DNA from: Bryobacterales bacterium
GTDB lineage: Bacteria; Acidobacteriota; Terriglobia; Bryobacterales; UBA6623
Direction of reading: 5' to 3'
DNA length: 64,000 bases
Assembly: GCA_965208945.1 (NCBI GenBank)
Contig: OZ242366.1
Span: 2,195,827-2,259,826 of the forward strand
Below are positions 11,682 to 58,139 of the stretch, one piece after another. Below the pieces are notes generated by a model. It worked only from the letters and a program-made list of their open reading frames with translations, made no database searches and had not been told where the DNA came from. Each line of letters opens with the position of its first letter. Position 1 is the first letter of the stretch. A program made the translations under genes and the position numbers.

Positions 11682-11797
11682 CCTGCATTTCTCGCCCGGT
11701 GGTGAGGCGAAGTGCGTGAGAGGGCCGCCAGGCAAGCGCAACGAAGTCATGGCGGTCGTATCGCGTGCTTCACCCGTCAGGTGGTGAGAAATGCCGG
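11682..11797 (+). mobile_element. MITE copy B1 (internally deleted, 116 bp)
   Basis: Both TIR-like ends are present and the central hairpin region is missing. Shares the CTAG at 11798-11801 with B2. Confidence 0.85.
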
Positions 11798-11801
11798 CTA
11801 G

Positions 11802-11978
11802 CCTGCATTTCTCATCACGCGGCGAGGCGAAGTGGGTGAGAGGGCCGTCAGGACGAGGCGCGCGCCGCTTGGCGCGCGCAAGCGTACTTGAACAGTACGT
11901 TGAGCACGGCAAGCAAGCGCAACGAAGTCCTGGTGGTCGTATCGCGTGCTTCGACCGTCGGGTGATGAGAAATGCAGG
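11802..11978 (+). mobile_element. MITE copy B2 (short subfamily)
   Basis: Full-length copy. The right flank CTAA (11979-11982) contains the lpxI stop codon (TAG on the minus strand). Confidence 0.9.
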
Positions 11979-12779
11979 CTAATATCCTAGCACCGCGATG
12001 TCGGCCTGATGGGCGGACCGGAGAGCTTCTTCCATGTCGACAAAAAGGGTCTTGCCGGCTTCGACGGCCAGGGCGGTGGCTTTGGCTTCGTGCATTTTCA
12101 GGAACGTCGTCAGACCGATGACGGGGACATCGAAACGCATGTCCTGATTGGGTTTTGCCATCTTGACGATGGTGAGCGGGCGGCCGTTGCTGAGGCCGCC
12201 GGCCCGGGTGATGACGTCATTGGTGCCCTCCATGGCCTCGACGGCGACGCAGGCGCGTTCGCAGATGGCGACGGTTTGGCCGATGTCGTAGCTCACCAGG
12301 GCGCGGGCGACTTCCTTTCCGTATTCGATGTCCGCCCATTCGTCAGCGGTGGGTGACCGCGACGTCAGGCAACCCTCTGTTGCGAGGAAAGGCTCCAGAA
12401 ACCGCGTCGAATCGATCAGGTGGATGTCTTCGTCTTCCAGGAATCCGGCGACGGCGCCGAGCAGCGAGTCGGTGTTTTTGCGCGGCAGCGAAGCAAGTAG
12501 CTTCAGCAGTTTCCAGTCGGGACGGATCGAAGAGTAGATCCGCGCATGACGCACGCGGCCTGCCATGACGGCTTCGGTGATTCCTTCGTTTTGGAAGACG
12601 CGGACGAGCTTGGTCAGTTCGCCGAGGGAAACCCAGTGACAGCGATTGACTTGCTCTTCGAGTTCCGGGTCGGCCTCTCCTTTGATCGCGACGGCGATGA
12701 CTTCGTGCCCTTGCTGCCGCGCTGAGGAAGCGACCAGCATCGGAAACCGGCCTCCTCCGGCGATCAGACCGAGCTTCAT
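11979..12779 (-). CDS. lpxI: UDP-2,3-diacylglucosamine diphosphatase LpxI (DUF1009)
   Basis: 266 aa starting MKLGLIAGGGRFP. ATGA overlap with the lpxA stop. The remainder of the 403-aa track ORF overlaps lpxA out of frame. Confidence 0.85.
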   Translation of the reverse strand: MKLGLIAGGGRFPMLVASSARQQGHEVIAVAIKGEADPELEEQVNRCHWVSLGELTKLVRVFQNEGITEAVMAGRVRHARIYSSIRPDWKLLKLLASLPRKNTDSLLGAVAGFLEDEDIHLIDSTRFLEPFLATEGCLTSRSPTADEWADIEYGKEVARALVSYDIGQTVAICERACVAVEAMEGTNDVITRAGGLSNGRPLTIVKMAKPNQDMRFDVPVIGLTTFLKMHEAKATALAVEAGKTLFVDMEEALRSAHQADIAVLGY

Positions 12780-22284: not shown

Positions 22285-22485
22285 CCTGTATTTCTCACCA
22301 CGCGGCGAGGCGAAGTGCGTGAGAGGGCCGTCAGGACGAGGCGCAAGCCGGGCGGAGGAAAAAGGCGCGAGCCGCTTGGCGCGCGCAGGCGTACTTGAAC
22401 CGTACGTTGAGCACGGCAAGCAAGCGCAACGAAGTCCTGGTGCTCGTATCGTGTGCTTCGACCGTTGGGTGGTGAGAAATGCAGG
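22285..22485 (+). mobile_element. MITE copy D (long subfamily, 201 bp)
   Basis: Flanked by a direct TTAG...TTAG (22281-22284 and 22486-22489). Contains the extra segment aagccgggcggaggaaaaaggcgcg. Confidence 0.9.
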
Positions 22486-23265
22486 TTAGAGCCTTTCGAG
22501 TTGTTCGCCCGCCACGGCAAAGGCGGCGAAAAGAGTTGCATTGTAGCTGGCGTGAACCAGGGTCGACGGCAGGATCGAACCGGTTCGAGCGCGCAATGTG
22601 CCGAACACGACCCCTACGCCCAGCAGCAGCAGCAGGTTCTGCCATCGCCAGCCGTACTGCGTGCCGTGTACCAGTGAGAACAGGGCGCTCGTGGCGAAGA
22701 CCGCGAAGCCCGCCCCTCGGGAGCGCTCGAATACGGGGAACAGGAAGCCCCGAAAGAAAGTCTCTTCCAATACCGGGGCGAAAAGGATGCCGAAGACGGC
22801 GAGTAGGGCCATCACCAGCGGGTCTTCGAGAAGGATTTCGAGAGGCAGTTTCTCGTCCACCTGCGGCAGCAGCATTGAGACGAGAACCACGCTAATGGCG
22901 AGAAAAGGACCCGTGGCCAGGTATTGAACGGGTGAGCCCTCATAGCGGACCCAGCCGATCGAAGGCCCGAATCGCAAGCGGTACTTGACGGCAACGATCA
23001 GATAGATGAATGCGAAGACCGCGGCCCAGAGCAACATCGAAATCGCCACATTCAGAGGTCCCTGCACGCGCGGCTCTTCCAGGTTGACCTCCCAATCGAA
23101 CACGAATCCCATCCCATAGAGGCACCCGACGGCGATCACCGAGAGCATGAACAGGGCAATCACCCCAAAGACAAGCAGGTAGAGAAGATCGAGATATCCC
23201 CAGGTTTCCGGTTGCTCGGGGTCGTCTGGAGGCAAGAGCGGGGGTGGCTCGCTGGGGTGTTCCAT
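22486..23265 (-). CDS. CPBP family intramembrane glutamic endopeptidase (CAAX protease-like)
   Basis: Motifs EETFFRGF, SLVHG, HASYN. The stop TAA lies inside the TTAG flank of MITE D. An alternative start at 23292 uses the ATG in the MITE E1 terminus. Confidence 0.85.
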   Translation of the reverse strand: MEHPSEPPPLLPPDDPEQPETWGYLDLLYLLVFGVIALFMLSVIAVGCLYGMGFVFDWEVNLEEPRVQGPLNVAISMLLWAAVFAFIYLIVAVKYRLRFGPSIGWVRYEGSPVQYLATGPFLAISVVLVSMLLPQVDEKLPLEILLEDPLVMALLAVFGILFAPVLEETFFRGFLFPVFERSRGAGFAVFATSALFSLVHGTQYGWRWQNLLLLLGVGVVFGTLRARTGSILPSTLVHASYNATLFAAFAVAGEQLERL

Positions 23266-23285
23266 CGGCGAGCGCCGGTCGCTAG

Positions 23286-23666
23286 CCTGCATGTCTCACC
23301 ACGTGGCGAGGCGAAGTGGGTGAGAGGACCGTCAGGACTAGCCTGCATGTCTCACCACGCGGCGAGGTGAAGTGCGTGAGAGGGCCGTCAGGACGAGGCG
23401 CGAGCCGCTTGGCGCGCGCAGGCGTACTTGACAGTACGTTGAGCACGGCAAGCAAGCGCAACGAAGTCCTGGCGGTCGTATCGCGTGCTTCGGCCGTCGG
23501 GTGGTGAGAAATGCAGGCTAGGCGCAAGCCGGGCGGAGGAAAAAGGCGCGAGCCGCTTGGCGCGCGCAGGCGTACTTGAACAGTACGTTGAGTACGGCAA
23601 GCAAACGCAACGAAGTCCTGGCGGTCGTATGGCGTGCTTCGACCGTCGGGTGGTGAGAAATGCAGG
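23286..23666 (+). mobile_element. MITE copy E1 (long subfamily) carrying nested copy E2
   Basis: E1 is interrupted after gtcaggac by E2. E1 sequence resumes at 23522 with gcgcaagccggg. Confidence 0.88.
23342..23517 (+). mobile_element. MITE copy E2 (short subfamily) nested in E1
   Basis: Complete TIRs, with CTAG on both sides (23338-23341 and 23518-23521). Confidence 0.88.
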
Positions 23667-23783
23667 CTGGGGTTGTCCGGTCGCAAAGTATCCATCGTAA
23701 CGCGGAATGGAGGCGTCAAAGCCCGTAGTGGCCTCGTTTTCGACGTCCGTGAGGTTTCTGAGGTCAGGCCGGATAATGGGGCT

Positions 23784-24386: not shown

Positions 24387-24420
24387 CCTGCATTTCTCAC
24401 CACGTCGTTACACAGGCAGG
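24387..24420. mobile_element. Mini-MITE F (34 bp)
   Basis: Sequence cctgcatttctcaccacgtcgttacacaggcagg flanked by TTAG and CTAA. The right flank holds the stop codon of the 24421-24912 gene. Confidence 0.7.
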
Positions 24421-24912
24421 CTAATCCGAGGCTTGCCGCGAGCGCAACGCCTTGTGGAGCAACCCCAGCCCGGCGGTGATCAGCAACAAAGGCCAGAGCC
24501 GATGGATCGAGGCGTTGAACCAGCCCAACTCTTGAAACTGGAAAATCACGCCGAGCAACAATACGATCGTTCCCGGCGTCCAGTCAAACTCTTGCCGGAC
24601 TTTCTTGCTCGCCAACAGGTTGATTCCAACGGCGATCAGGATCAATGGCCAGAACGCCAATAGGTCATGGAATCGCAAAGCGTCCAGATTGACGGCCTGA
24701 AGGCCGATCCCCAAGCAGATCGTGGCGATGCCAAACGCTCGGGATCTCGGGTCCAGAGCCCAATGCACGCCGGCCGCGATCAAGATTAACGGCCAATAGA
24801 GCCACAGGTCCCAGAGCCGCAGGACATCGAAATTGTGAAGCAGGAACAACACTCCCAGAGCCAGGACGACAAGGCCCGGGATGAAGCCTTTCGCTGAAGG
24901 GAATGACTTCAT
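24421..24912 (-). CDS. Membrane protein with repeated LiaF/DUF5668-like TM hairpins
   Basis: 163 aa. Three repeats of LWPLILIAxG-type TM segments. Confidence 0.7.
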   Translation of the reverse strand: MKSFPSAKGFIPGLVVLALGVLFLLHNFDVLRLWDLWLYWPLILIAAGVHWALDPRSRAFGIATICLGIGLQAVNLDALRFHDLLAFWPLILIAVGINLLASKKVRQEFDWTPGTIVLLLGVIFQFQELGWFNASIHRLWPLLLITAGLGLLHKALRSRQASD

Positions 24913-27068: not shown

Positions 27069-27243
27069 AATCGTTTACCGACACCGTGCCCCTTCGGAGG
27101 CCCGGACAGTTGCAGCGAACGCTTGGATCACGTTCGCTGCAGATTCAAAATCGCCCGTTTCTCCGTTCGAAGCAGGTACCAGTCTCCGGCATTTTGATTT
27201 AGGAATGTTCTGCTGCCGAGAAGACGCGTGCGTCTCAGGCTAG

Positions 27244-29225: not shown

Positions 29226-29412
29226 ACCTGTATTCTCACCACGAGGCGAGGCGAAGTGGGTGAGAGGGCCGACAGGACGAGGCGCGGGCCGGGCGGAGGA
29301 AAAAGGCGCGTGCAACATGGCTTTTAAAGGTTTTTACGAATCACGAGTCACGAAACACGAATCACGGCCTTTTTATCGCGTGCTTCGACCGTCGGGTAGT
29401 GAGAAATGCAGG
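29226..29412 (+). mobile_element. MITE copy H (heptad-bearing variant)
   Basis: Normal left arm and right TIR. The centre is replaced by ggcttttaaaggttttt plus an (A/T)CACGAR heptad array. Flanks are CTGA and TCAG. Confidence 0.85.
29334..29368. repeat. Heptad tandem repeat (W)CACGAR x5 inside MITE H
   Basis: Units read ttacgaa tcacgag tcacgaa acacgaa tcacggc. Confidence 0.85.
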
Positions 29413-31548: not shown

Positions 31549-31749
31549 CCTGCATTTCTAACCACGTGGCGAGGCGAAGTGGGTGAGAGGGCCGTCAGGA
31601 CTAGGCGCAAGCCGGGCGGAGGAAAAAGGCGCGAGCCGCTTGGCGCGCGCAGGCGTACTTGAACCGTACGTTGAGCACGGCAAGCAAGCGCAACGAAGTC
31701 CTGGCGGTCGTATCGCGTGCTTCGACCGTTGGGTGGTGAGAAATACAGG
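31549..31749 (+). mobile_element. MITE copy I (long subfamily) with an unoccupied internal CTAG
   Basis: Flanks are CTAG and TCAG. Internal sequence gtcaggactaggcgcaag is the empty form of the site occupied in E1 and K. Confidence 0.9.
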
Positions 31750-33170: not shown

Positions 33171-33237
33171 CCTGCATGTCTCGCCATGTGGCAAAGAGAA
33201 GTCCGTTCGCATCACGAATCAGGGCTTTCAAGTTTTT

Positions 33238-33269
33238 CACTAGCCACTGGCCACTAATCACTATCCACT
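33238..33269. repeat. CACTNNN x5 tandem heptads
   Basis: Units read cact agc cact ggc cact aat cact atc cact. Confidence 0.85.
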
Positions 33270-33282
33270 GCTTTTTTGCTTT

Positions 33283-33310
33283 TCACGAAACACGAGACCC
33301 GAAACACGGC
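33283..33310. repeat. Heptad tandem repeat (W)CACGAR x4
   Basis: Units read tcacgaa acacgag acccgaa acacggc. Confidence 0.8.
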
Positions 33311-33625
33311 CTTTTCTGTGGCTCGTTTGGTGCCCGTTGGTACTGAAGCCCTTCAGTCTTTTTTTCGGCCGGGGGACGGTTTAGGTTGAAAGTGATAACG
33401 CCGTTGTTGGGAACGAAAACCCCATCCGCGCCCGTCGGGGCCACAAGTCGGGTGGGGACGGAAGAGCCGCCCGGTCGCTACTTACCTGCGCGTTGTGGCG
33501 CGGCATGGGGCGGTTATGGCGCGGAATGGGCGGCCGCCGTCCCCCGCGCTGGCAACACGGCCTTTCCTGTTCACCAGACGTCAGATATTTCTTCTGGAGC
33601 GAACCAAGCCCCCCAACCATGGTTT

Positions 33626-33667
33626 TCACGAAACACGAAACACGAGACACGAGGCACGAATCACAGC
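33626..33667. repeat. Heptad tandem repeat (W)CACGAR x6
   Basis: Units read tcacgaa acacgaa acacgag acacgag gcacgaa tcacagc. Confidence 0.85.
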
Positions 33668-33680
33668 TTCCCTACCCACG

Positions 33681-33720
33681 ATTTCCCACCATTTCCCACG
33701 ATTTCCCGGCATTTCCCGGG
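33681..33720. repeat. 10-bp phased repeat ATTTCCCNNN x4
   Basis: Units read atttcccacc atttcccacg atttcccggc atttcccggg, with an exact 10-bp period. Confidence 0.9.
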
Positions 33721-33918
33721 CCCCCCACCCCCTCTCCGCCGATCAAGTGTCCACGAGCCGTCCGCCTTTCTTGGTCAGCCGCCCGGGACTGCCGCCCCCG
33801 CCCGGTCGCTGCTTTCCTGGGCGTTGTGGCGCGGCATGGGGCGGCTATGGCGCGGCATGGGGTGCCCCGAGCCACTGTTCACGCACCATCCTCACCAGCA
33901 ACATAACCATTCGGGTTT

Positions 33919-33953
33919 TCACGAAACACGAGACACGACACACGAATCACGGC
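33919..33953. repeat. Heptad tandem repeat (W)CACGAR x5
   Basis: Units read tcacgaa acacgag acacgac acacgaa tcacggc. Confidence 0.85.
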
Positions 33954-34290
33954 TTTTTTTCACATGCTGCGACCGTCGGGTGGTGAGAAATGCAGGCTAA
34001 CGCCCTGCTCGACGATCTGGTGGCTCAACAGCCGGCGGAAAAACGGACTAAGCGCGTCAGTCGGCAAGCCCGCAGGCTTCAAAGGGGCATGTACGAAGCG
34101 CGGGAAAACGAGTGGAAAGGACTTTTTCCGAATCCCGATTCGGTTCAAGATTCGGAATTCCCCACAATTCGTCACAATTCGTCGGAAAGATTCGGATAAG
34201 CACCTGCCGCCCATCAAGCGCCCCCGCGCACTGCGGCAACCGGGACATCGGCTTCATGGATGCATCGCGTCCCCGCCTGACCTTCCCTGG

Positions 34291-41337: not shown

Positions 41338-41533
41338 CACGCTTGGCGCGCGCAGGTGTACTTGATCGTACATCGAGCACGGCAAGCAAGCGCAACGTAG
41401 TCATGGCGGTCGTATCGCCTCCTTCGGCCCTCGGGTTACGAGACACGCAACACGGCCTTTAAGGTTTTTTACGAAACACGAAACACGGCCGTTTTATCGC
41501 GTGTTCCGGCCGTCATGTGGTGAGAAATGCAGG
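41338..41533 (+). mobile_element. MITE copy L (left arm missing; heptad-bearing right part)
   Basis: Begins within the gcttggcgcgcgcagg centre and ends in gtggtgagaaatgcagg plus CTAG. Contains two heptad arrays at 41436-41489. Confidence 0.8.
41436..41489. repeat. Two (W)CACGMR heptad arrays separated by ctttaaggtttt
   Basis: Units read ttacgag acacgca acacggc ... ttacgaa acacgaa acacggc. Confidence 0.8.
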
Positions 41534-44984: not shown

Positions 44985-45950
44985 CTAACTGCCCTGATAC
45001 TCGTGTCTGCGCCGGCCTTCGAGCGCCGTGCGCGCGTCGCGCTTCCAGTCTTCCAGGTCGGGGCCGGCAAGCTCTGCGGCTCTCCCGCGCAGCTCGGCCA
45101 TCACATCCCTGTTGTACTGCGAGAACTGCTGCGCGATGCGGACATCGTCTTCGATCTGACCGATCGTCGTGCATCCGACCGCGAGGCAATGGATCGGAAG
45201 GCTCAGCACGTAGTTGATGCATTGCCCGACCCCGAATGACTGGAGCAGCTTCGAGTTGGCCGTGCTCTTCATGCCCTGGATGCCCAGGTTCTGCTTTTGG
45301 GCTTCCGGCAGCACCTTCTGTTCGAAGCTCAAATACGACGGATCGGCTGGATTGAGCGGCATCAGGATCGTGTCGAAGTCCTTGTAAAGCCGCAGCATCT
45401 CGAGATGGGCTTCCGGATCGTGATGCCCGGTAAAACCGATGTAGCGGCATTTGCCCGCTTTCTTTGCCGCCTCGAAAGCTTCGATCGCACCGCCGGGAGC
45501 GAAGATGGCTTTGAGGTCCTCATCTGACTTGACGGAGTGAATCTGCCACAGATCGAGATAGTCGGTCTTGAGTCTCTTCAGCGACTTGTGTAGTTCTTCC
45601 TCGGCTTCCTTGCGGGTTCGCTTCACGCTCTTCGTGGTCAGGAAGACCTCCTTGCGGACATCCTCGAGCGCTTCGCCGTAGACCACCTCGGAGCGGCCGT
45701 TCCAGTAGCTGTGTGCATTGTCGAAGTAGTTGAGCCCGAGTTCATAGGAGCGGCGCGTGATGGCCTTGGCCTGATCGAACGTGCAAAGCGGAAAACGCCC
45801 ACCGGCTTGTCCGACGAGCGTGAGTTTCTCGCCGGTCTTGCCGAACGTCCTTTTCGGTACGTCACCGGCTTTCAGGCGGCTCGCCCGGGTACTGCCCGCC
45901 GCGATGCTCAACCCCGCAACAGCACTGCCGAAGAAGCTGCGTCGTTTCAT
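44985..45950 (-). CDS. Aldo/keto reductase, Tat-type signal
   Basis: Starts MKRRSFFGSAVAGLSIAAG. AKR blocks (YFDNAHSY, GFTGHH). Confidence 0.88.
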   Translation of the reverse strand: MKRRSFFGSAVAGLSIAAGSTRASRLKAGDVPKRTFGKTGEKLTLVGQAGGRFPLCTFDQAKAITRRSYELGLNYFDNAHSYWNGRSEVVYGEALEDVRKEVFLTTKSVKRTRKEAEEELHKSLKRLKTDYLDLWQIHSVKSDEDLKAIFAPGGAIEAFEAAKKAGKCRYIGFTGHHDPEAHLEMLRLYKDFDTILMPLNPADPSYLSFEQKVLPEAQKQNLGIQGMKSTANSKLLQSFGVGQCINYVLSLPIHCLAVGCTTIGQIEDDVRIAQQFSQYNRDVMAELRGRAAELAGPDLEDWKRDARTALEGRRRHEYQGS

Positions 45951-50533: not shown

Positions 50534-51016
50534 TTGTCATACCTCGAGTGGCTTGAGAACTCACTGACGGACAAGCTCGAAGAGCAGCCGGTCGGAGAGC
50601 CTGTCGCCCTTCGCGCCTACCTGGAGCTGAGCGACGATCACGGGCACCTGGTTCCGACCGCCGGGGCGATGGCGGCTGTCGCAGGCGCTTGGTTCGGTGC
50701 GGGATTGCCCAAGGTCTATGCTCTCGGCGGAGCCGACCAGGGATACGTTTCGGTCACCGCGACGTATCCTGGCGGACAGACCGCTCTGATCGTCGCCGAG
50801 TCCTTGAGCGCAGCCGCCGGTGAGCGGCCCTCCGTGCGTCTCTTGCTGATCGGCAACCATGGCACGATGGAGTTCGCTGATTCGCCGGGTGCGGATTTCC
50901 GCACGGTCGATCGAACGCCGCCTGCCGGCGCGAGCAGCGAGGCTCTGAGCCGGGCGATAGCTGAGTCGCTCCGGTCCAGCGCCCCCGTGGAAGGGAGCAC
51001 GCACAGCCGTGGCTAG
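50534..51016 (+). CDS. Hypothetical protein (resembles a Gfo/Idh/MocA C-terminal-type domain)
   Basis: 160-aa ORF with a TTG start. Its stop TAG lies inside the left CTAG flank of MITE N. Start and function are uncertain. Confidence 0.45.
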   Translation: MSYLEWLENSLTDKLEEQPVGEPVALRAYLELSDDHGHLVPTAGAMAAVAGAWFGAGLPKVYALGGADQGYVSVTATYPGGQTALIVAESLSAAAGERPSVRLLLIGNHGTMEFADSPGADFRTVDRTPPAGASSEALSRAIAESLRSSAPVEGSTHSRG

Positions 51017-51192: not shown

Positions 51193-52340
51193 CTAAACCT
51201 TCGTTCGGCGTTCTGCTCGTAACGGGCGGGATGACCCACCAGGAGAACTACGGAGAGGGATTCCTCGCCGACCCGCGCGCAAGAGTCGTCGGCCTTACCG
51301 ATGAACCCGATGTCGACGAACGCCGCGACCGCCTGAACCGCGGATTGGCCGATCAGTTCGGCATCCCCTTCCTGCCGGATATCCGCGAGGCGCTCGCGCG
51401 GTCCGATGTGCACCTCGTCTCCGTCTGCTCGGAGTTCGAGCGGCGCACCCGCGTCTCTCAAATCTGTGCGGAAGCCGGCAAGCATCTCTACGTCGACAAG
51501 CCCATGGTGACGAAGATGGCGGAGGCCGACAAACTCGTGGCGACAGCCGGGCGGCGTGGTTTGCGCGGGCAGATGTTCACTCAGGTCGGCGCGCCGTACG
51601 CGAGGCGGCTGAAAGGAATCGTCGATTCCGGTGCTTTGGGCGAGATCAAGTCGATCCAGTGTGACCTCATGTTCGCGAAGGGTTTCACCGGCGGCGCTCC
51701 GCTTGGCGTGCCGCGGCGCGAGCACGATCCGCCCAGGCGGTTCACGTTCCCGGACGCCAAGCGTGAGATCTGGACGACCGCGGTCTATTCGCTCACCTTG
51801 ATCCGCTGGCTCCTCGGCGGACCCCGCTTTCGTAGCGTCTACGCCACGAGCGCCAACTACTTTTTCGAGGAGCACTACAAACGCGATGTCGAGGACTTCG
51901 GCACGCTTGCTCTCACGCTCGACAACGGCGTCACGGCGTCGCTGATCGCCGGCCGGATCGGTTGGCACAGTCACCGCAGTTCCGGCCCGAACTTCACGCG
52001 CATCATCGGTAGCAAGCGCAGCTTCCTTCTTGACGCGCACAGCCCGCGCTTCGAAATCTCGTCCGACCGAAAGTGGGCGCCGCCGGCGAAGGACCCCATC
52101 GATCCCATGGGCTTCTGGTCGAGCACCATGGAGCGTGGGAACGCTCAACCCAAGCCCTTTTGGCATGAGCCGCCGACCGCGCCCGGGCAATCGGATCAGG
52201 CTCTCTTCCTCGATTGCCTCGAACAGGACAAAGAGCCGGAAGTCACGCTGGACGATGCCGCGCAGGCATCCGAGGCCATGCTGGCCGCCTACCGGTCCGC
52301 TGCGACAGGGCAGGTGGTGGCGTTGCCTCTGCCGCGCTAG
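51186..52340 (+). CDS. Gfo/Idh/MocA family oxidoreductase
   Basis: 384 aa. Rossmann beta1 plus Gly-rich loop FGVLLVTGG begins at codon 7. The only in-frame start after the upstream TGA (51179-51181) is the ATG inside the MITE N terminus. The stop TAG lies in the CTAG flank of MITE K. Confidence 0.8.
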   Translation: MQAKPSFGVLLVTGGMTHQENYGEGFLADPRARVVGLTDEPDVDERRDRLNRGLADQFGIPFLPDIREALARSDVHLVSVCSEFERRTRVSQICAEAGKHLYVDKPMVTKMAEADKLVATAGRRGLRGQMFTQVGAPYARRLKGIVDSGALGEIKSIQCDLMFAKGFTGGAPLGVPRREHDPPRRFTFPDAKREIWTTAVYSLTLIRWLLGGPRFRSVYATSANYFFEEHYKRDVEDFGTLALTLDNGVTASLIAGRIGWHSHRSSGPNFTRIIGSKRSFLLDAHSPRFEISSDRKWAPPAKDPIDPMGFWSSTMERGNAQPKPFWHEPPTAPGQSDQALFLDCLEQDKEPEVTLDDAAQASEAMLAAYRSAATGQVVALPLPR

Positions 52341-52396
52341 CCTGCATTTTTCACGACGTGGCGAGGCGAAGTGGGTGAGAGGGCCGTCAGGACTAG

Positions 52397-54120
52397 CCCG
52401 GAAATCTCACCAGGGGGTAGGAAAAGGGCTGCCTGGTGTGGCATAAAACATTTATGTCCAAAACGTTAGCGCCACAAGCCGAAAGCAGCCCTCTGTCAAC
52501 AGAGTGTATCCAATCCAGCTTCACCTTTGCCAAGCATTTTCGACGCCAGGTGAGCGCTCGCTTTGACGGCGGGGTGATCAGTTCCGACGGCGGCGCGCTG
52601 CTGTTACGGGAGGTGGACCAGCGCATCAACCTGCTGCCGCGCTTGGCGGGCTGCTTCGAGGATGGCCGCGATTCGCGGCGCATCGAACACCTGGTGGGGG
52701 AGTTGGTCTCGCAGCGGGTCTACGGGCTGGCGCTGGGATACGAAGACCTCAACGATCACGACGAGTTGCGGCGCGATCCGGTGCTGGCGCTGCTGGCGGG
52801 CAAGAGCGACGTGTCCGGGCAGCGCCGCCGCCGCGAGCGTGACCGCGGCCAGCCGCTGGCGGGCAAGAGCACGTTGCAGCGACTGGAACGAACGACCGAT
52901 GGCGTGGATCGTTACCAGAAGGTCCGCTGCGTCAGCGAAGCGATCGACCGCCTGTTGGTGGACGTGTTCGTGGAAGCGCACTCGCAGGAGCCGGCCGAGG
53001 TCCTACTCGATATCGACGCCACCGACACGCCTTTGCACGGGCAGCAGGAGGGACGTTTCTTTCACGGCTACTACAGACACTACTGCTACTTGCCGCTGTA
53101 CATCTTCAGCGGCGAGCACGTGTTGTGCGCGCGGCAGCGGGTATCGAATCAAGACGCGGCGGCGGGCAGCGTAGCGGAGTTGGAGAGGATCGTGGCGCAG
53201 CTCCGGGCCGCGTGGCCGGAGGTGAAGATCATCCTGCGTGGGGACTCGGGGTTTTGTCGGGACGAGTTGCTGAGTTGGTGCGAAGAGAACCGGGTGGACT
53301 ATGTGGTGGGGCTGGCGCGCAACGAGCGGCTGCAGTCGTTGATCGAGGAGGCGCTCGAAGAGGCGGCCAGCAGGCAGCAGCAAACGGGCCGGCCGGCGCG
53401 GGCCTACAGCGAGTTCGAGTATCGGACGCTTGAGAGTTGGAGCCGGGAGCGGCGGGTGGTGGCGAAAGCCGAACAGTTGGTGGGCAAGCAGAACCCGCGC
53501 TACGTGGTGACGTCGCTGGACGGGGAGCGCTGGCCGCCGCGGCGGTTGTATGAACAACTCTACTGCGGGCGCGGGGAGGCGGAGAATCGCATCAAGGAGC
53601 AGTTGAGTCTGTTCGCGGATCGCATGAGTACGGAGACGCTACGGGCCAATCAGTTGCGGCTGCATCTGTCGTCGCTGGCGTATGTGTTGCTGGTGGGACT
53701 GCGGCGGCTGGGGCTGAAGGGCACGCAGTGGGCGCGGGCGCAGACCGAGACGATCCGGCGGGGGCTGTTGAAGATCGGCGCGCTGGTGAAGGTGAGCGTG
53801 CGGCGGGTGCATCTGTCGCTGGCCAGCGGCTACCCCGATGAGGAGGCGTTCGCGGCGGTGTATCGGGCGCTGCGTCCGCCGGGACCAGCAACTGTTTGAC
53901 AACAGTGAGCGAACCGAAAAACGGGGCCGTCGGCAGCCTCAGGGGCGAAGTGTTTCTCAAATCGGCCACAACCCGAAAAACGAACATTCGCGAGCCGCTA
54001 AGGGCAGCGCAAAACGCCCCGTAGAGGCCTTCACTCACCCTCGCCGCGAAGAATACCGTGTTTCAGACCCTATTTCGGCCTCCCTCAACCCATCGCGAAG
54101 CCGCTGGTGAGAAATGCAGG
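52397..54120 (+). mobile_element. IS1380-family insertion sequence (1724 bp), probable autonomous partner of the MITE
   Basis: Bounded by CTAG direct repeats (52393-52396 and 54121-54124). IRL is cccggaaatctcaccagg and IRR is gctggtgagaaatgcagg. IRR matches the MITE TIR at 16 of 17 positions. Confidence 0.85.
52436..53899 (+). CDS. IS1380 family DDE transposase
   Basis: 487 aa. N-terminal FDGGVISSDGGALLLREVD and the blocks LDIDATDTPLHGQQEGRFFHGYY and RGDSGFCR are typical of this family, identified from memory. Confidence 0.85.
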   Translation: MWHKTFMSKTLAPQAESSPLSTECIQSSFTFAKHFRRQVSARFDGGVISSDGGALLLREVDQRINLLPRLAGCFEDGRDSRRIEHLVGELVSQRVYGLALGYEDLNDHDELRRDPVLALLAGKSDVSGQRRRRERDRGQPLAGKSTLQRLERTTDGVDRYQKVRCVSEAIDRLLVDVFVEAHSQEPAEVLLDIDATDTPLHGQQEGRFFHGYYRHYCYLPLYIFSGEHVLCARQRVSNQDAAAGSVAELERIVAQLRAAWPEVKIILRGDSGFCRDELLSWCEENRVDYVVGLARNERLQSLIEEALEEAASRQQQTGRPARAYSEFEYRTLESWSRERRVVAKAEQLVGKQNPRYVVTSLDGERWPPRRLYEQLYCGRGEAENRIKEQLSLFADRMSTETLRANQLRLHLSSLAYVLLVGLRRLGLKGTQWARAQTETIRRGLLKIGALVKVSVRRVHLSLASGYPDEEAFAAVYRALRPPGPATV

Positions 54121-54281
54121 CTAGGCGCAAGCCGGGCGAAGGAAAAAGGCGCGAGCCGCTTGGCGCGCGCAGGCGTACTTATGGGATGGTTCGCTCCCAC
54201 TTCCGCTGCGTCGTCGAGTTCGGCCATGCTGGTAGCAACGGCCGTCCCCGGCCGCAGTTCACGAACCGAGAGGAAACCATC

Positions 54282-55355
54282 ATGGCAACGACCCAGCGAT
54301 CATCCCGCAAGAGCGTATGGAAGGAGGTCGTCACGATCGGCCTCGATCTAGCAAAACACAACGTCGACTTGGTCGGCTTGGACGCAACCGGCCGGGTGCT
54401 CACCCGTCGCCGCTACTCGAAGGGCAAGCTGCTGGAGGTGACCGCCCAGATGCAGCCCTGCCGTATCGGCATGGAAGCCTGCTGCGGCGCCCATCACCTG
54501 GGCCGCCAACTGCTGGCCCAGGGGCACGACGTGAAGCTGATGCCGCCCAAATATGTGAAGCCCTTTGTGAAGCGCGACAAGAACGACTCGACGGACGCCG
54601 AGGCCTGCGCGGAAGCCTGTCTGCGGCCGAGCATGCGCTTCGTGGCGGTCAAGAGCGAGCAACAACTGTCGATGCAGTCGCTGCACCGCTATCGCTCGCG
54701 GCTGGTGGGCAACTCGACGCAGTTGATCAACCAGGCGCGCGCCTTTCTGCTGGAACGCGGCATCACCCTTCCACAGGGCAAGCGTTGGTTTGTGGTCCGT
54801 CTGCCGGAGATCCTCGAGGACGCCGATAACGGCCTGTCCGACGAAATGCGGGCGCTGCTGGCGGGCATGTTTGCCGAATGGCAAGTGCTGGCAGAGAAGA
54901 TTCAGCAAGTCAACACCTATCTGCTGAGGAAAGCGCAGGCGAGCGAGGCCTGCCGGCGGCTCAGAGAGATCCCCGGCATCGGCGTGCAGACAGCGACGGC
55001 CTTGGTGGCGACGATCGGCAACGCCGAGGCCTTCGAGAAGGGGCGCGACGTCGCTGCTTGGTTGGGTCTGGTGCCGAGAGAGTACTCCAGCGGAGGCAAG
55101 CAGCGCTTGGGAGGCATCAGCAAGCGCGGCAACCGCTACGTCCGGACGCTGCTGGTGCACTGTGCCCGCTCGAGCCTCGACGTGCTCGCGAAGCGCAGCG
55201 ACCAACTCGGCCAGTGGCTGCGGCGGATGCTCCTGAACAAAGATCGGCGGGTCGTGATCGTGGCGCTGGCGGCACGGCTGGCGCGCATCGCATGGGCCTT
55301 GCTGAGCAGCGGCCAGCGCTTCTCTCAACAGCGGCAACCAGCCCCGGCGGGTTAA
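54282..55355 (+). CDS. IS110 family DEDD transposase/recombinase
   Basis: 357 aa. Blocks IGLDLAK, GMEAC, KNDSTDAEA, and C-terminal GISKRGNRYVR. Confidence 0.9.
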   Translation: MATTQRSSRKSVWKEVVTIGLDLAKHNVDLVGLDATGRVLTRRRYSKGKLLEVTAQMQPCRIGMEACCGAHHLGRQLLAQGHDVKLMPPKYVKPFVKRDKNDSTDAEACAEACLRPSMRFVAVKSEQQLSMQSLHRYRSRLVGNSTQLINQARAFLLERGITLPQGKRWFVVRLPEILEDADNGLSDEMRALLAGMFAEWQVLAEKIQQVNTYLLRKAQASEACRRLREIPGIGVQTATALVATIGNAEAFEKGRDVAAWLGLVPREYSSGGKQRLGGISKRGNRYVRTLLVHCARSSLDVLAKRSDQLGQWLRRMLLNKDRRVVIVALAARLARIAWALLSSGQRFSQQRQPAPAG

Positions 55356-55618
55356 CCGCCCTGCGGTCCGCCGTAGCACTACCAGGAGCTCACAGTTTGT
55401 CTGCTTACTCCCGATTGATGGACAAAACGGTCGTACCGGCGTCACCGAATCCTGTTACTGTTCATGGCCCTCACAGGTCGGCGTACTTATGAGGAGCGGG
55501 ACGTGCGGACCCCATCATGGCCCGGAACCAGCGCGGTTCCACCTAGAGGTCGGATATATTGGCGCAGACCAACGTTCAGCAAGAAGGAATAGGTGGACAT
55601 CCCGGGAGCGAACCATAT
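55356..55618 (+). ncRNA. Candidate guide (bridge/seek-type) RNA region in the IS110-family right end
   Basis: Contains tactgttca (55456-55464), the reverse complement of the right target flank tgaacagta. Also contains ggcgtactt (55480-55488), identical to the left target flank. A hairpin ggaacc-agcgc-ggttcc is present. No fold model could be run. Confidence 0.4.
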
Positions 55619-55864
55619 ATTGAACAGTACGTTGAGCACGGCAAGCAAGCGCAACGAAGTCCTGGCGGTCGTATCGCGTGCTTAGACCGCCGGGTGGCGA
55701 GAAATGTAGGCTAGTCGCTCCCGGAACGGTTCCCTGCCATCCCGCGCGCCAAGAGCGCCGGGCGATCGCTTGACGTAGGTGAGCCCTGAGCCGCTATCGA
55801 AGATCAGAGCGGTGTGATAACCTGACAGCAGCTCGACCCGCATACTCATTTGGGAGGAACGAAC

Positions 55865-58105: not shown

Positions 58106-58139
58106 CCTGCATTTCTCACCACGTGGCGAGACATGCAGG
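58106..58139. mobile_element. Mini-MITE O (34 bp)
   Basis: Sequence cctgcatttctcaccacgtggcgagacatgcagg with CTAG on both flanks. It abuts the thpR start codon. Confidence 0.75.

Follow-up and report, generated by a model that had tools for sequence, protein, structure and literature searches.

One copy of an abundant MITE in this stretch of Bryobacterales DNA is split at an internal CTAG by a second, complete copy, and the same position in another copy holds a full insertion sequence (IS). The locus therefore raises the question of whether the MITE has created a preferred target within itself, as proposed by the initial annotation, or whether its internal CTAG is used like any other CTAG in the genome. 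The analysis was based on the whole stretch of 64,000 nucleotides (hereafter the window) and on loci fetched from related genomes, which are designated by L numbers.

Structure of the MITE family and of the nested copies

The window, with a G+C content of 63%, contained 35 matches to a 15-nt probe for the MITE terminus, compared to 1.5 expected, and about 20 MITE copies were recognised in its 64 kb by BLAST with three copies and by listing the flanks (one every 3 kb or so). The MITE termini read CCTGCATTTCTCACCAC and GTGGTGAGAAATGCAGG. A short form (~176 bp) and a long form (201 bp) were present, differing by a 24-25-nt unit, GCGCAAGCCGGGCGGAGGAAAAAG (i.e. GCGC[A/G]AGCCGGGCGGAGGAAAAAG), located directly 3' of position 56 and occurring 0, 1 or 2 times depending on the copy. 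These elements are short, non-coding (no match to Pfam or Rfam in the MITE region) and present in high copy number. Their terminal inverted repeats match those of an autonomous IS, with which they also share the target and its duplication (YTAR, 4 bp). The copies on which the following sections rely are listed below.

22285-22485, + strand: copy D, long-form MITE; CGAG at 22337-22340; its own target-site duplication is TTAG/TTAG
23282-23285, + strand: CTAG, left target-site duplication of E1; the right copy (23667-23670) has decayed to CTGG
23286-23341, + strand: left part of E1 (MITE positions 1-56), with the internal CTAG (23338-23341) at its end
23342-23517, + strand: E2, a short-form MITE of 176 bp, complete, lying inside E1 and oriented like it
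23518-23521, + strand: second CTAG, duplicated by the insertion of E2 (perfect duplication with 23338-23341)
23522-23666, + strand: right part of E1 (MITE positions 57-201), carrying the long-form unit GCGCAAGCCGGGCGGAGGAAAAAG
29227-29412, + strand: copy H, of a variant subfamily whose right half differs; the homologous position reads CGAG
31549-31749, + strand: copy I, long-form MITE; internal CTAG empty at 31601-31604
52341-52396, + strand: left part of K, ending in the internal CTAG (52393-52396)
52397-54120, + strand: IS1380-family insertion sequence, 1724 bp, with ends CCCGGAAATCTCACCAG (left) and CTGGTGAGAAATGCAGG (right) and CTAG on both sides
52454-53899, + strand: IS1380-family DDE transposase gene, 481 aa from ATG (the ORF lister started it at GTG, 52436)
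54121-54180, + strand: duplicated CTAG (54121-54124) and middle part of K (MITE positions 57-112)
54181-55618, + strand: IS110/IS1111-type element, 1438 bp, with a transposase gene at 54282-55355 and TT on both sides
55619-55710, + strand: TT and right part of K to the right terminus, followed by the right duplication of K (CTAG, 55711-55714)

E1 is a 201-bp long-form MITE (23286-23666) interrupted after position 56 by E2 (23342-23517). Once E2 and one CTAG were removed, it measured exactly 201 bp and aligned gap-free with copy I (95.5% identity) and copy D (93%). The duplication flanking E1 is imperfect (CTAG/CTGG) and that flanking E2 is perfect, which fits E2 being the younger insertion. 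K (52341-55710) is bounded by a perfect CTAG/CTAG duplication (52337-52340 and 55711-55714), whose left copy contains the TAG with which the upstream GFO/IDH/MocA gene terminates. It is interrupted twice: by the IS1380-family element, at MITE position 53-56 as for E2 in E1, and by the IS110-family element (54181-55618), which was absent from the initial annotation. Removal of both left 203 bp, corresponding to the long form plus TT. The initial annotation had described E2 within E1, the IS within K, the unoccupied CTAG of copy I and the CGAG of copy D, and the coordinates of all four were correct; the same internal CTAG has indeed received both a MITE (E2 in E1) and a full IS (the 1724-bp element in K).

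IS1380-family elements measure about 1.55-2.0 kb and possess one ORF and terminal inverted repeats beginning with CC, according to the ISfinder description. The IS in K, with a single ORF (481 aa), a length of 1724 bp and a CTAG/CTAG duplication within the 4-5 bp usual for such elements, belongs to this family. Its transposase matched PF13701 (E = 6.7e-147) and NF033539 (383.8 bits, cutoff 180), and the relatives of this protein are 481 aa long. In the fetched related loci, the nearest IS copies were 88% identical to the one in the window, and these loci otherwise had no match to the window. The right end of the IS matched the MITE termini at 16 of 18 bases, and, to judge from the shared ends and the shared target, a transposase of this lineage probably mobilises the MITEs in trans.

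Bracket-matching of termini gave 148 paired elements in a 639-kb data set, several long pairs being false ones made of partial copies, which were left out. Mini-elements of 34 bp composed of the two termini alone (e.g. CCTGCATTTCTCACCACGTGGCGAGACATGCAGG) were observed at 58106-58139 and 24387-24420 of the window, flanked by CTAG/CTAG (58102, 58140) or TTAG/CTAA, and the 639-kb data set contained four of this kind, of ~30 bp; they may represent MITEs reduced to a minimum or what internal deletions left behind. Other subfamilies shared the termini and had different interiors (33171-33996, 29227-29412 and 41340-41533 in the window; L114, L115, L125, L021 and L050), consisting of CACGAAACACGA-type short repeats or of a CACTAGC repeat, itself containing CTAG (33240). 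These subfamilies, too, had received IS copies at internal CTAGs: L114 and L115 carried them at gggggcCTAGttcgctcc, and L125 in the CACTAGC repeat.

State of position 53-56 across related copies

The copies were located with a pattern of 23 nt taken from immediately 3' of the site, and were thus found whatever the state of the site itself. A scan of species-representative genomes returned at least 78 stretches (575 kb), all of them, among the matches listed, from three Bryobacterales MAGs (OZ241991.1, a 6.3-Mb chromosome; RHO3_bin_12; and APA_bin_29); the window was not among the stretches listed. A further 34 contigs came from JGI metagenomes, scanned in a second step. In total, 125 copies were read, originating from the Bryobacterales MAGs (among the matches listed), two metagenome sources and the window, which contributed five.

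The initial annotation had proposed that the states of this position be surveyed genome-wide. Among the 125 copies read, CGAG was present and empty in 79, CTAG was empty in 32 and filled in 6, CGAG was filled in none, and 8 were in another or an unclear state. Insertions were therefore found in 6 of 38 CTAG copies and in 0 of 79 CGAG copies (Fisher p = 0.0009, copies read).

All 34 interpretable metagenome copies (one more was unclear) and all 11 of the APA_bin_29 copies read had CGAG, and the CTAG state was nearly always accompanied by the neighbouring variant GCGCAA. CTAG is thus the derived state of one subfamily, which was later amplified in some genomes. The filled junction (TSCRGGCTAGGCGCAAGCCGGGCG) had no match in the metagenome scan, where a broader pattern gave CGAG copies alone; the latter result helped to establish the ancestry of the site and added no filled cases.

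Target specificity of the family

At 350 terminus flanks in the 639-kb data set, the adjoining 4-mers were CTAG (116), TTAG (39), TTAA (29) and CTAA (26), the remainder being mostly one transition away from one of these four. Among 40 perfect duplications, 21 were CTAG, nine CTAA or TTAG, and seven TTAA, the other three being CCAG/CTGG or CTGA, so that 37 of 40 conformed to YTAR. The non-palindromic duplications are direct repeats, which indicates a true 4-bp duplication of YTAR. An extension of the inverted repeats by the four flanking bases was excluded, given the direct repeats TTAG/TTAG (copy D and L127) and CTAA/CTAA (L124) and the nine perfect cases. No extended target motif was detected: positions -12 to -1 in 185 YTAR flanks showed no clear departure from background, and free CTAGs were alike in this respect.

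The flanks of the IS itself were read in 15 copies from other genomes, picked by exact transposase identity regardless of the presence of MITEs (three contigs of 5.4-5.9 Mb, other assemblies), so as to avoid an ascertainment bias for the full IS. Twelve were flanked by CTAG, one by CTAA, one by TTAG and one by a 5-bp CGTAA, the duplication thus measuring 4 bp in 14 of 15 copies and 5 bp in one. The latter copy (L121:1444-3167) lies at a non-YTAR site, and its CGTAA duplication suggests that the transposase occasionally makes a 5-bp staggered cut, as do other IS1380-family members.

The MITE consensus contains a single YTAR, the CTAG at position 53-56 of this subfamily, and is otherwise devoid of it, which explains why all nested insertions in this MITE share one position; all 11 filled cases, from the window and the related genomes, were at 53-56, which is not a matter of chance. 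CTAG was depleted in the window as a whole, with 35 occurrences compared to 82.8 expected from dinucleotide shuffles. By our reading, 22 of these 35 (63%) flank or lie inside MITEs, and 11 lie outside mobile elements.

Beside many MITE ends, the duplicated YTAR holds the TAG or TAA stop of the neighbouring gene (52337-52340, 51013-51016, 27240-27243, 22486-22489, 11979-11982, 24421-24424 and 44985-44988), so that the insertion preserves that stop. Overall, 74 of 353 termini lay directly beside the stop of an ORF with 100 codons or more. A separate preference for stop codons was considered and dropped, as 77 of 202 free CTAGs were likewise ORF stops; the position of termini at stop codons reflects where YTAR survives in a GC-rich genome.

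Occupancy of the internal CTAG compared with other CTAGs

The internal CTAG of long MITEs was filled in 6 of 38 cases (16%). Other CTAGs of the fetched loci and the window, with the locus-defining elements excluded, had an insertion in 34 of 237 instances (14%; Fisher p = 0.81), this background being drawn from 8-kb tiles chosen for holding a long MITE, with index elements excluded, and hence from regions that may be atypical. When CTAG was required on both flanks, the proportions were 4 of 36 (11%) for internal and 10 of 213 (5%) for other CTAGs (p = 0.13). Equal occupancy is not proof of equal rates, since selection and site age both weigh on it: genic CTAGs are barely available, and native sites are older than those inside MITEs. 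The similar occupancy suggests that the site carries no extra preference; these figures do not demonstrate a modest one, which may nevertheless exist.

The alternative is a true structural hotspot, in which the context of the internal CTAG, or a transposase bound to the MITE ends and favouring nearby targets, would raise the use of this site. It is consistent with the folding of the element: the CTAG would sit at the inner end of a 53-bp extended inverted-repeat arm, and the predicted hairpin places it atop the main stem (-53.9 kcal/mol, z = -4.5). The internal CTAG was also used more often (6/38) than CTAGs flanking a resident element, which were re-used in 2 of 105 cases (p = 0.005). The low re-use of flanking CTAGs could correspond to a real avoidance, or to instability or assembly collapse of tandem copies. 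Such shared sites do occur: one CTAG is common to two elements in B1/B2 (11798-11801, within 11682-11978 of the window), and an IS abuts a MITE end in L062 (L062:2673), L113, L120 and L124.

The positions of the 15 IS copies picked by transposase identity were as follows.

At the exact internal CTAG of a long MITE: 3 of 15 (L117, L118, L122)
At an internal CTAG of another MITE subfamily: 3 of 15 (L114, L115, L125)
Abutting a MITE end and re-using its duplication: 3 of 15 (L113, L120, L124)
At an unrelated site: 6 of 15 (L116, L119, L121, L123, L126, L127)

The nine MITE-associated copies are in line with uniform targeting of CTAG where MITEs carry 42-63% of all CTAGs (p = 0.13-0.70) and exceed the expectation if that share is about 26% (p = 0.006), the baseline being uncertain. 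Similarly, three copies at the exact site are more than a rough expectation of 4% (p = 0.02) and not more than one of 10% (p = 0.18). The low estimates of the MITE-borne share thus favour a hotspot, whereas the 63% of window CTAGs that are MITE-associated would alone predict the 60% seen. Given also that occupancy equals that of generic CTAGs, that no flank preference emerged from the 185 YTAR insertions and that six of the 15 IS copies sit at unrelated sites, a structural hotspot is considered unlikely.

In our reading, the tetranucleotide itself explains the nesting pattern, which is ordinary target-specific nesting. The proposal that the element creates its own preferred target is therefore retained in one part: CTAG is derived, and the MITE did make this target itself. 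The terms "preferred" and "hotspot" are not sustained, in view of the 16% and 14% occupancies and the lack of a wider sequence context.

Independence of the insertions and fate of the nested copies

The initial annotation held that the MITE and the IS had used the site independently, and named as the opposing case a single nested structure spread by segmental duplication and recognisable by identical flanks. Eleven filled loci were compared, with MITE inserts in E1 of the window, L023, L027, L032, L054 and L059, and IS inserts in K of the window, L044, L117, L118 and L122. Their 500-bp flanks had nothing in common. The IS had the same orientation as its host MITE in K and L122 and the opposite one in L044, L117 and L118, L118 and L122 belonging to one genome. 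The inner MITE was opposite to its host in L023 and in the same orientation in the others. Each inner MITE was nearest to solo copies and not to another inner copy (e.g. the inner copy of L032 shares 99.4% identity with L024:6286, and E2 shares 97.7% with solo copies). Orthology of the GFO/IDH/MocA genes adjoining K and L118 was considered and rejected, these proteins sharing 24% identity. The unshared flanks, the two orientations and the proximity of inner to solo copies indicate that insertion was recurrent and independent, as had been claimed.

A single ancestral nest, later copied by segmental duplication or transposed as a composite through its outer ends, is conceivable in that the outer ends of a composite remain intact and could be mobilised, and in that the composites of L027 and L054 show nested structures that were processed further. 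It is nevertheless contradicted as an account of the whole pattern, and very improbable, as the insert is a 176-bp MITE in E1 and a 1724-bp IS in K, the flanks are unrelated in 11 of 11 loci, both orientations occur even within one genome, the inner MITEs do not cluster, and the gene beside L118 is not orthologous to that beside K. The nests could also be thought of as repeat copies mis-joined during metagenome assembly, since the MITE recurs with extreme frequency (about every 3 kb of the window) and several of the related genomes are MAGs. Such an artefact is scarcely credible in the face of exact 4-bp duplications at the junctions, host halves that rejoin gap-free, the same architecture in independent assemblies (complete chromosomes among them) and an E2 sequence set apart from either half of E1 by several differences.

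The two composites (L027:957-1256 and L054:320-699) consist of a complete inner MITE, CTAG and the right part of the host, without its left part. They could have arisen by transposition using the left end of the inner copy and the right end of the host, or by loss of the sequence between the two left arms, which are direct repeats, and their flanks (CTTA/CTAA and GTAG/CTGG) fit either origin. Composites of this type are a possible route to new MITE subfamilies.

The IS110/IS1111-type element in K

The second element in K possessed subterminal inverted repeats, ATGGTTCGCTCCC and GGGAGCGAACCAT, and was inserted in the central palindrome of the MITE, at GCGTACTT|GAACAGTACG. Its transposase is of the DEDD type, with PF01548 and PF02371, and matched NF033542 at 334.8 bits (cutoff 140). 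Elements sharing 88% DNA identity with this one, whose transposase (P0123) has 87% protein identity, occupied the same MITE position in two other loci, L128/L130 (one locus in two assemblies; L128:699-2139) and L129, where the hosts are short-form MITEs. A relative with a 78%-identical transposase was found 16 nt inside the right end of an IS1380-family IS (L131, L132). The target is thus sequence-specific, and there is no long duplication, TT alone being repeated, as in the IS110/IS1111 group. An Rfam scan of the window at the gathering thresholds gave no match.

IS1111/IS110 elements target repeats (REPs, attC, Tn21-family inverted repeats) by means of a seekRNA or bridge RNA (PMC11187229, PMC11208160, PMC12288879). 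The element in K resembles them in its DEDD transposase, its subterminal inverted repeats and its recurrence at an identical position in the MITE; its target differs, being the central palindrome of the MITE or, for the 78%-identical relative, the right end of an IS1380-family IS. By analogy, this lineage looks like an RNA-guided one that has specialised on this MITE/IS family.

Proposed explanation

The account favoured here, to which a probability of roughly 0.78 is assigned as a whole, combines a YTAR-targeting IS1380-family transposase, a MITE lineage that gained CTAG, and ordinary nesting. It builds on what the data show, namely how the nests are built, which targets the family uses, that filling depends on CTAG and that the insertions occurred independently. 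The transposase would insert its own IS and, in trans, the abundant end-matched MITEs into YTAR, with CTAG strongly favoured among these targets and 4 bp duplicated. One long-form lineage would have undergone a G-to-T change, turning CGAG into CTAG at positions 53-56, before being amplified, each CTAG-bearing copy then offering one target in neutral DNA. Later transpositions of MITEs and of the full IS, in either orientation, would have reached this internal CTAG at about the rate of other CTAGs. As CTAG is depleted several-fold elsewhere in the genome and each insertion adds one by duplication, a large share of CTAGs would be MITE-borne, and both nesting and abutting would be expected.

Comparison with known systems

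MITE-in-MITE nesting is classical in plants, and nested maize and rice MITEs were reportedly used by Jiang and Wessler in 2001 to infer insertion preference. The present case is alike in that a MITE lies inside a MITE at the short target of the family and nesting reveals the preference. The plant elements are eukaryotic (Tourist/Stowaway, with TAA/TA targets), whereas those described here are bacterial and IS1380-derived, and one subfamily owes its target to a point substitution.

The closest parallel in target is IS5 of E. coli, whose target is Py-T-A-Pu, with CTAG commonest and a 4-bp duplication, CTAG being an under-represented tetranucleotide (PMC5493358). The target consensus, the duplication and the under-representation of CTAG are the same here, but the IS family differs, the transposase being of the IS1380 type (PF13701, NF033539). 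For the IS1380 family, a 5-bp duplication is listed for IS1247 (PMC3281130). The literature searched yielded nothing on CTAG specificity of IS1380-family elements, nothing specific on IS1380-derived MITEs and nothing relevant on MITEs in sponge-associated Acidobacteria.

One-ended or alternative-end transposition is known in the IS1380 family from ISEcp1. Elements of this family also mobilise adjacent DNA through alternative ends in Paracoccus, where transposable modules consist of one element and adjacent DNA (PMC3281130). The composites of L027 and L054, extending from the inner left end to the right end of the host, resemble the use of a downstream alternative right end, but a deletion between the left-arm direct repeats of the host and inner copies gives the same product.

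Mobile elements that preferentially insert into other mobile elements have been described in a CTAG-avoiding prokaryote, Haloquadratum walsbyi (PMC3119063). In this archaeon several element types are involved, the best case being the insertion of SMR-A small mobile repeats into IS605-type palindromes without duplication, whereas here one family nests into itself through a simple 4-mer.

Biological implications

The locus amounts to a natural experiment on target choice, in which a single G-to-T change (CGAG to CTAG) took the MITE from 0 hits in 79 copies to about one in six. For Bryobacterales (Acidobacteriota), it documents an IS1380-family element that has YTAR/CTAG specificity and is accompanied by a very large family of MITEs. 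Through the amplification of a MITE, a tetranucleotide that is otherwise avoided can return to a genome in numbers, and the family thereby enlarges its own target pool. Nesting of this kind needs no new mechanism.

A bolder and rather unlikely reading is that the CTAG subfamily acts as a self-propagating landing pad, whose nests are reprocessed into composites and to which an IS110 lineage that is RNA-guided and specialised in this MITE adds a third tier of parasitism. If so, CTAG would have been purged from the genome, with survivors mostly in genes or stop codons, and the MITEs would supply most of the neutral targets for the family and the IS, new composite subfamilies arising, as for L027 and L054, through the use of alternative ends or deletion from arm to arm. 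The value of the finding is descriptive, and lies in the annotation of IS and MITEs in these genomes and in target-site studies of IS1380 transposases.
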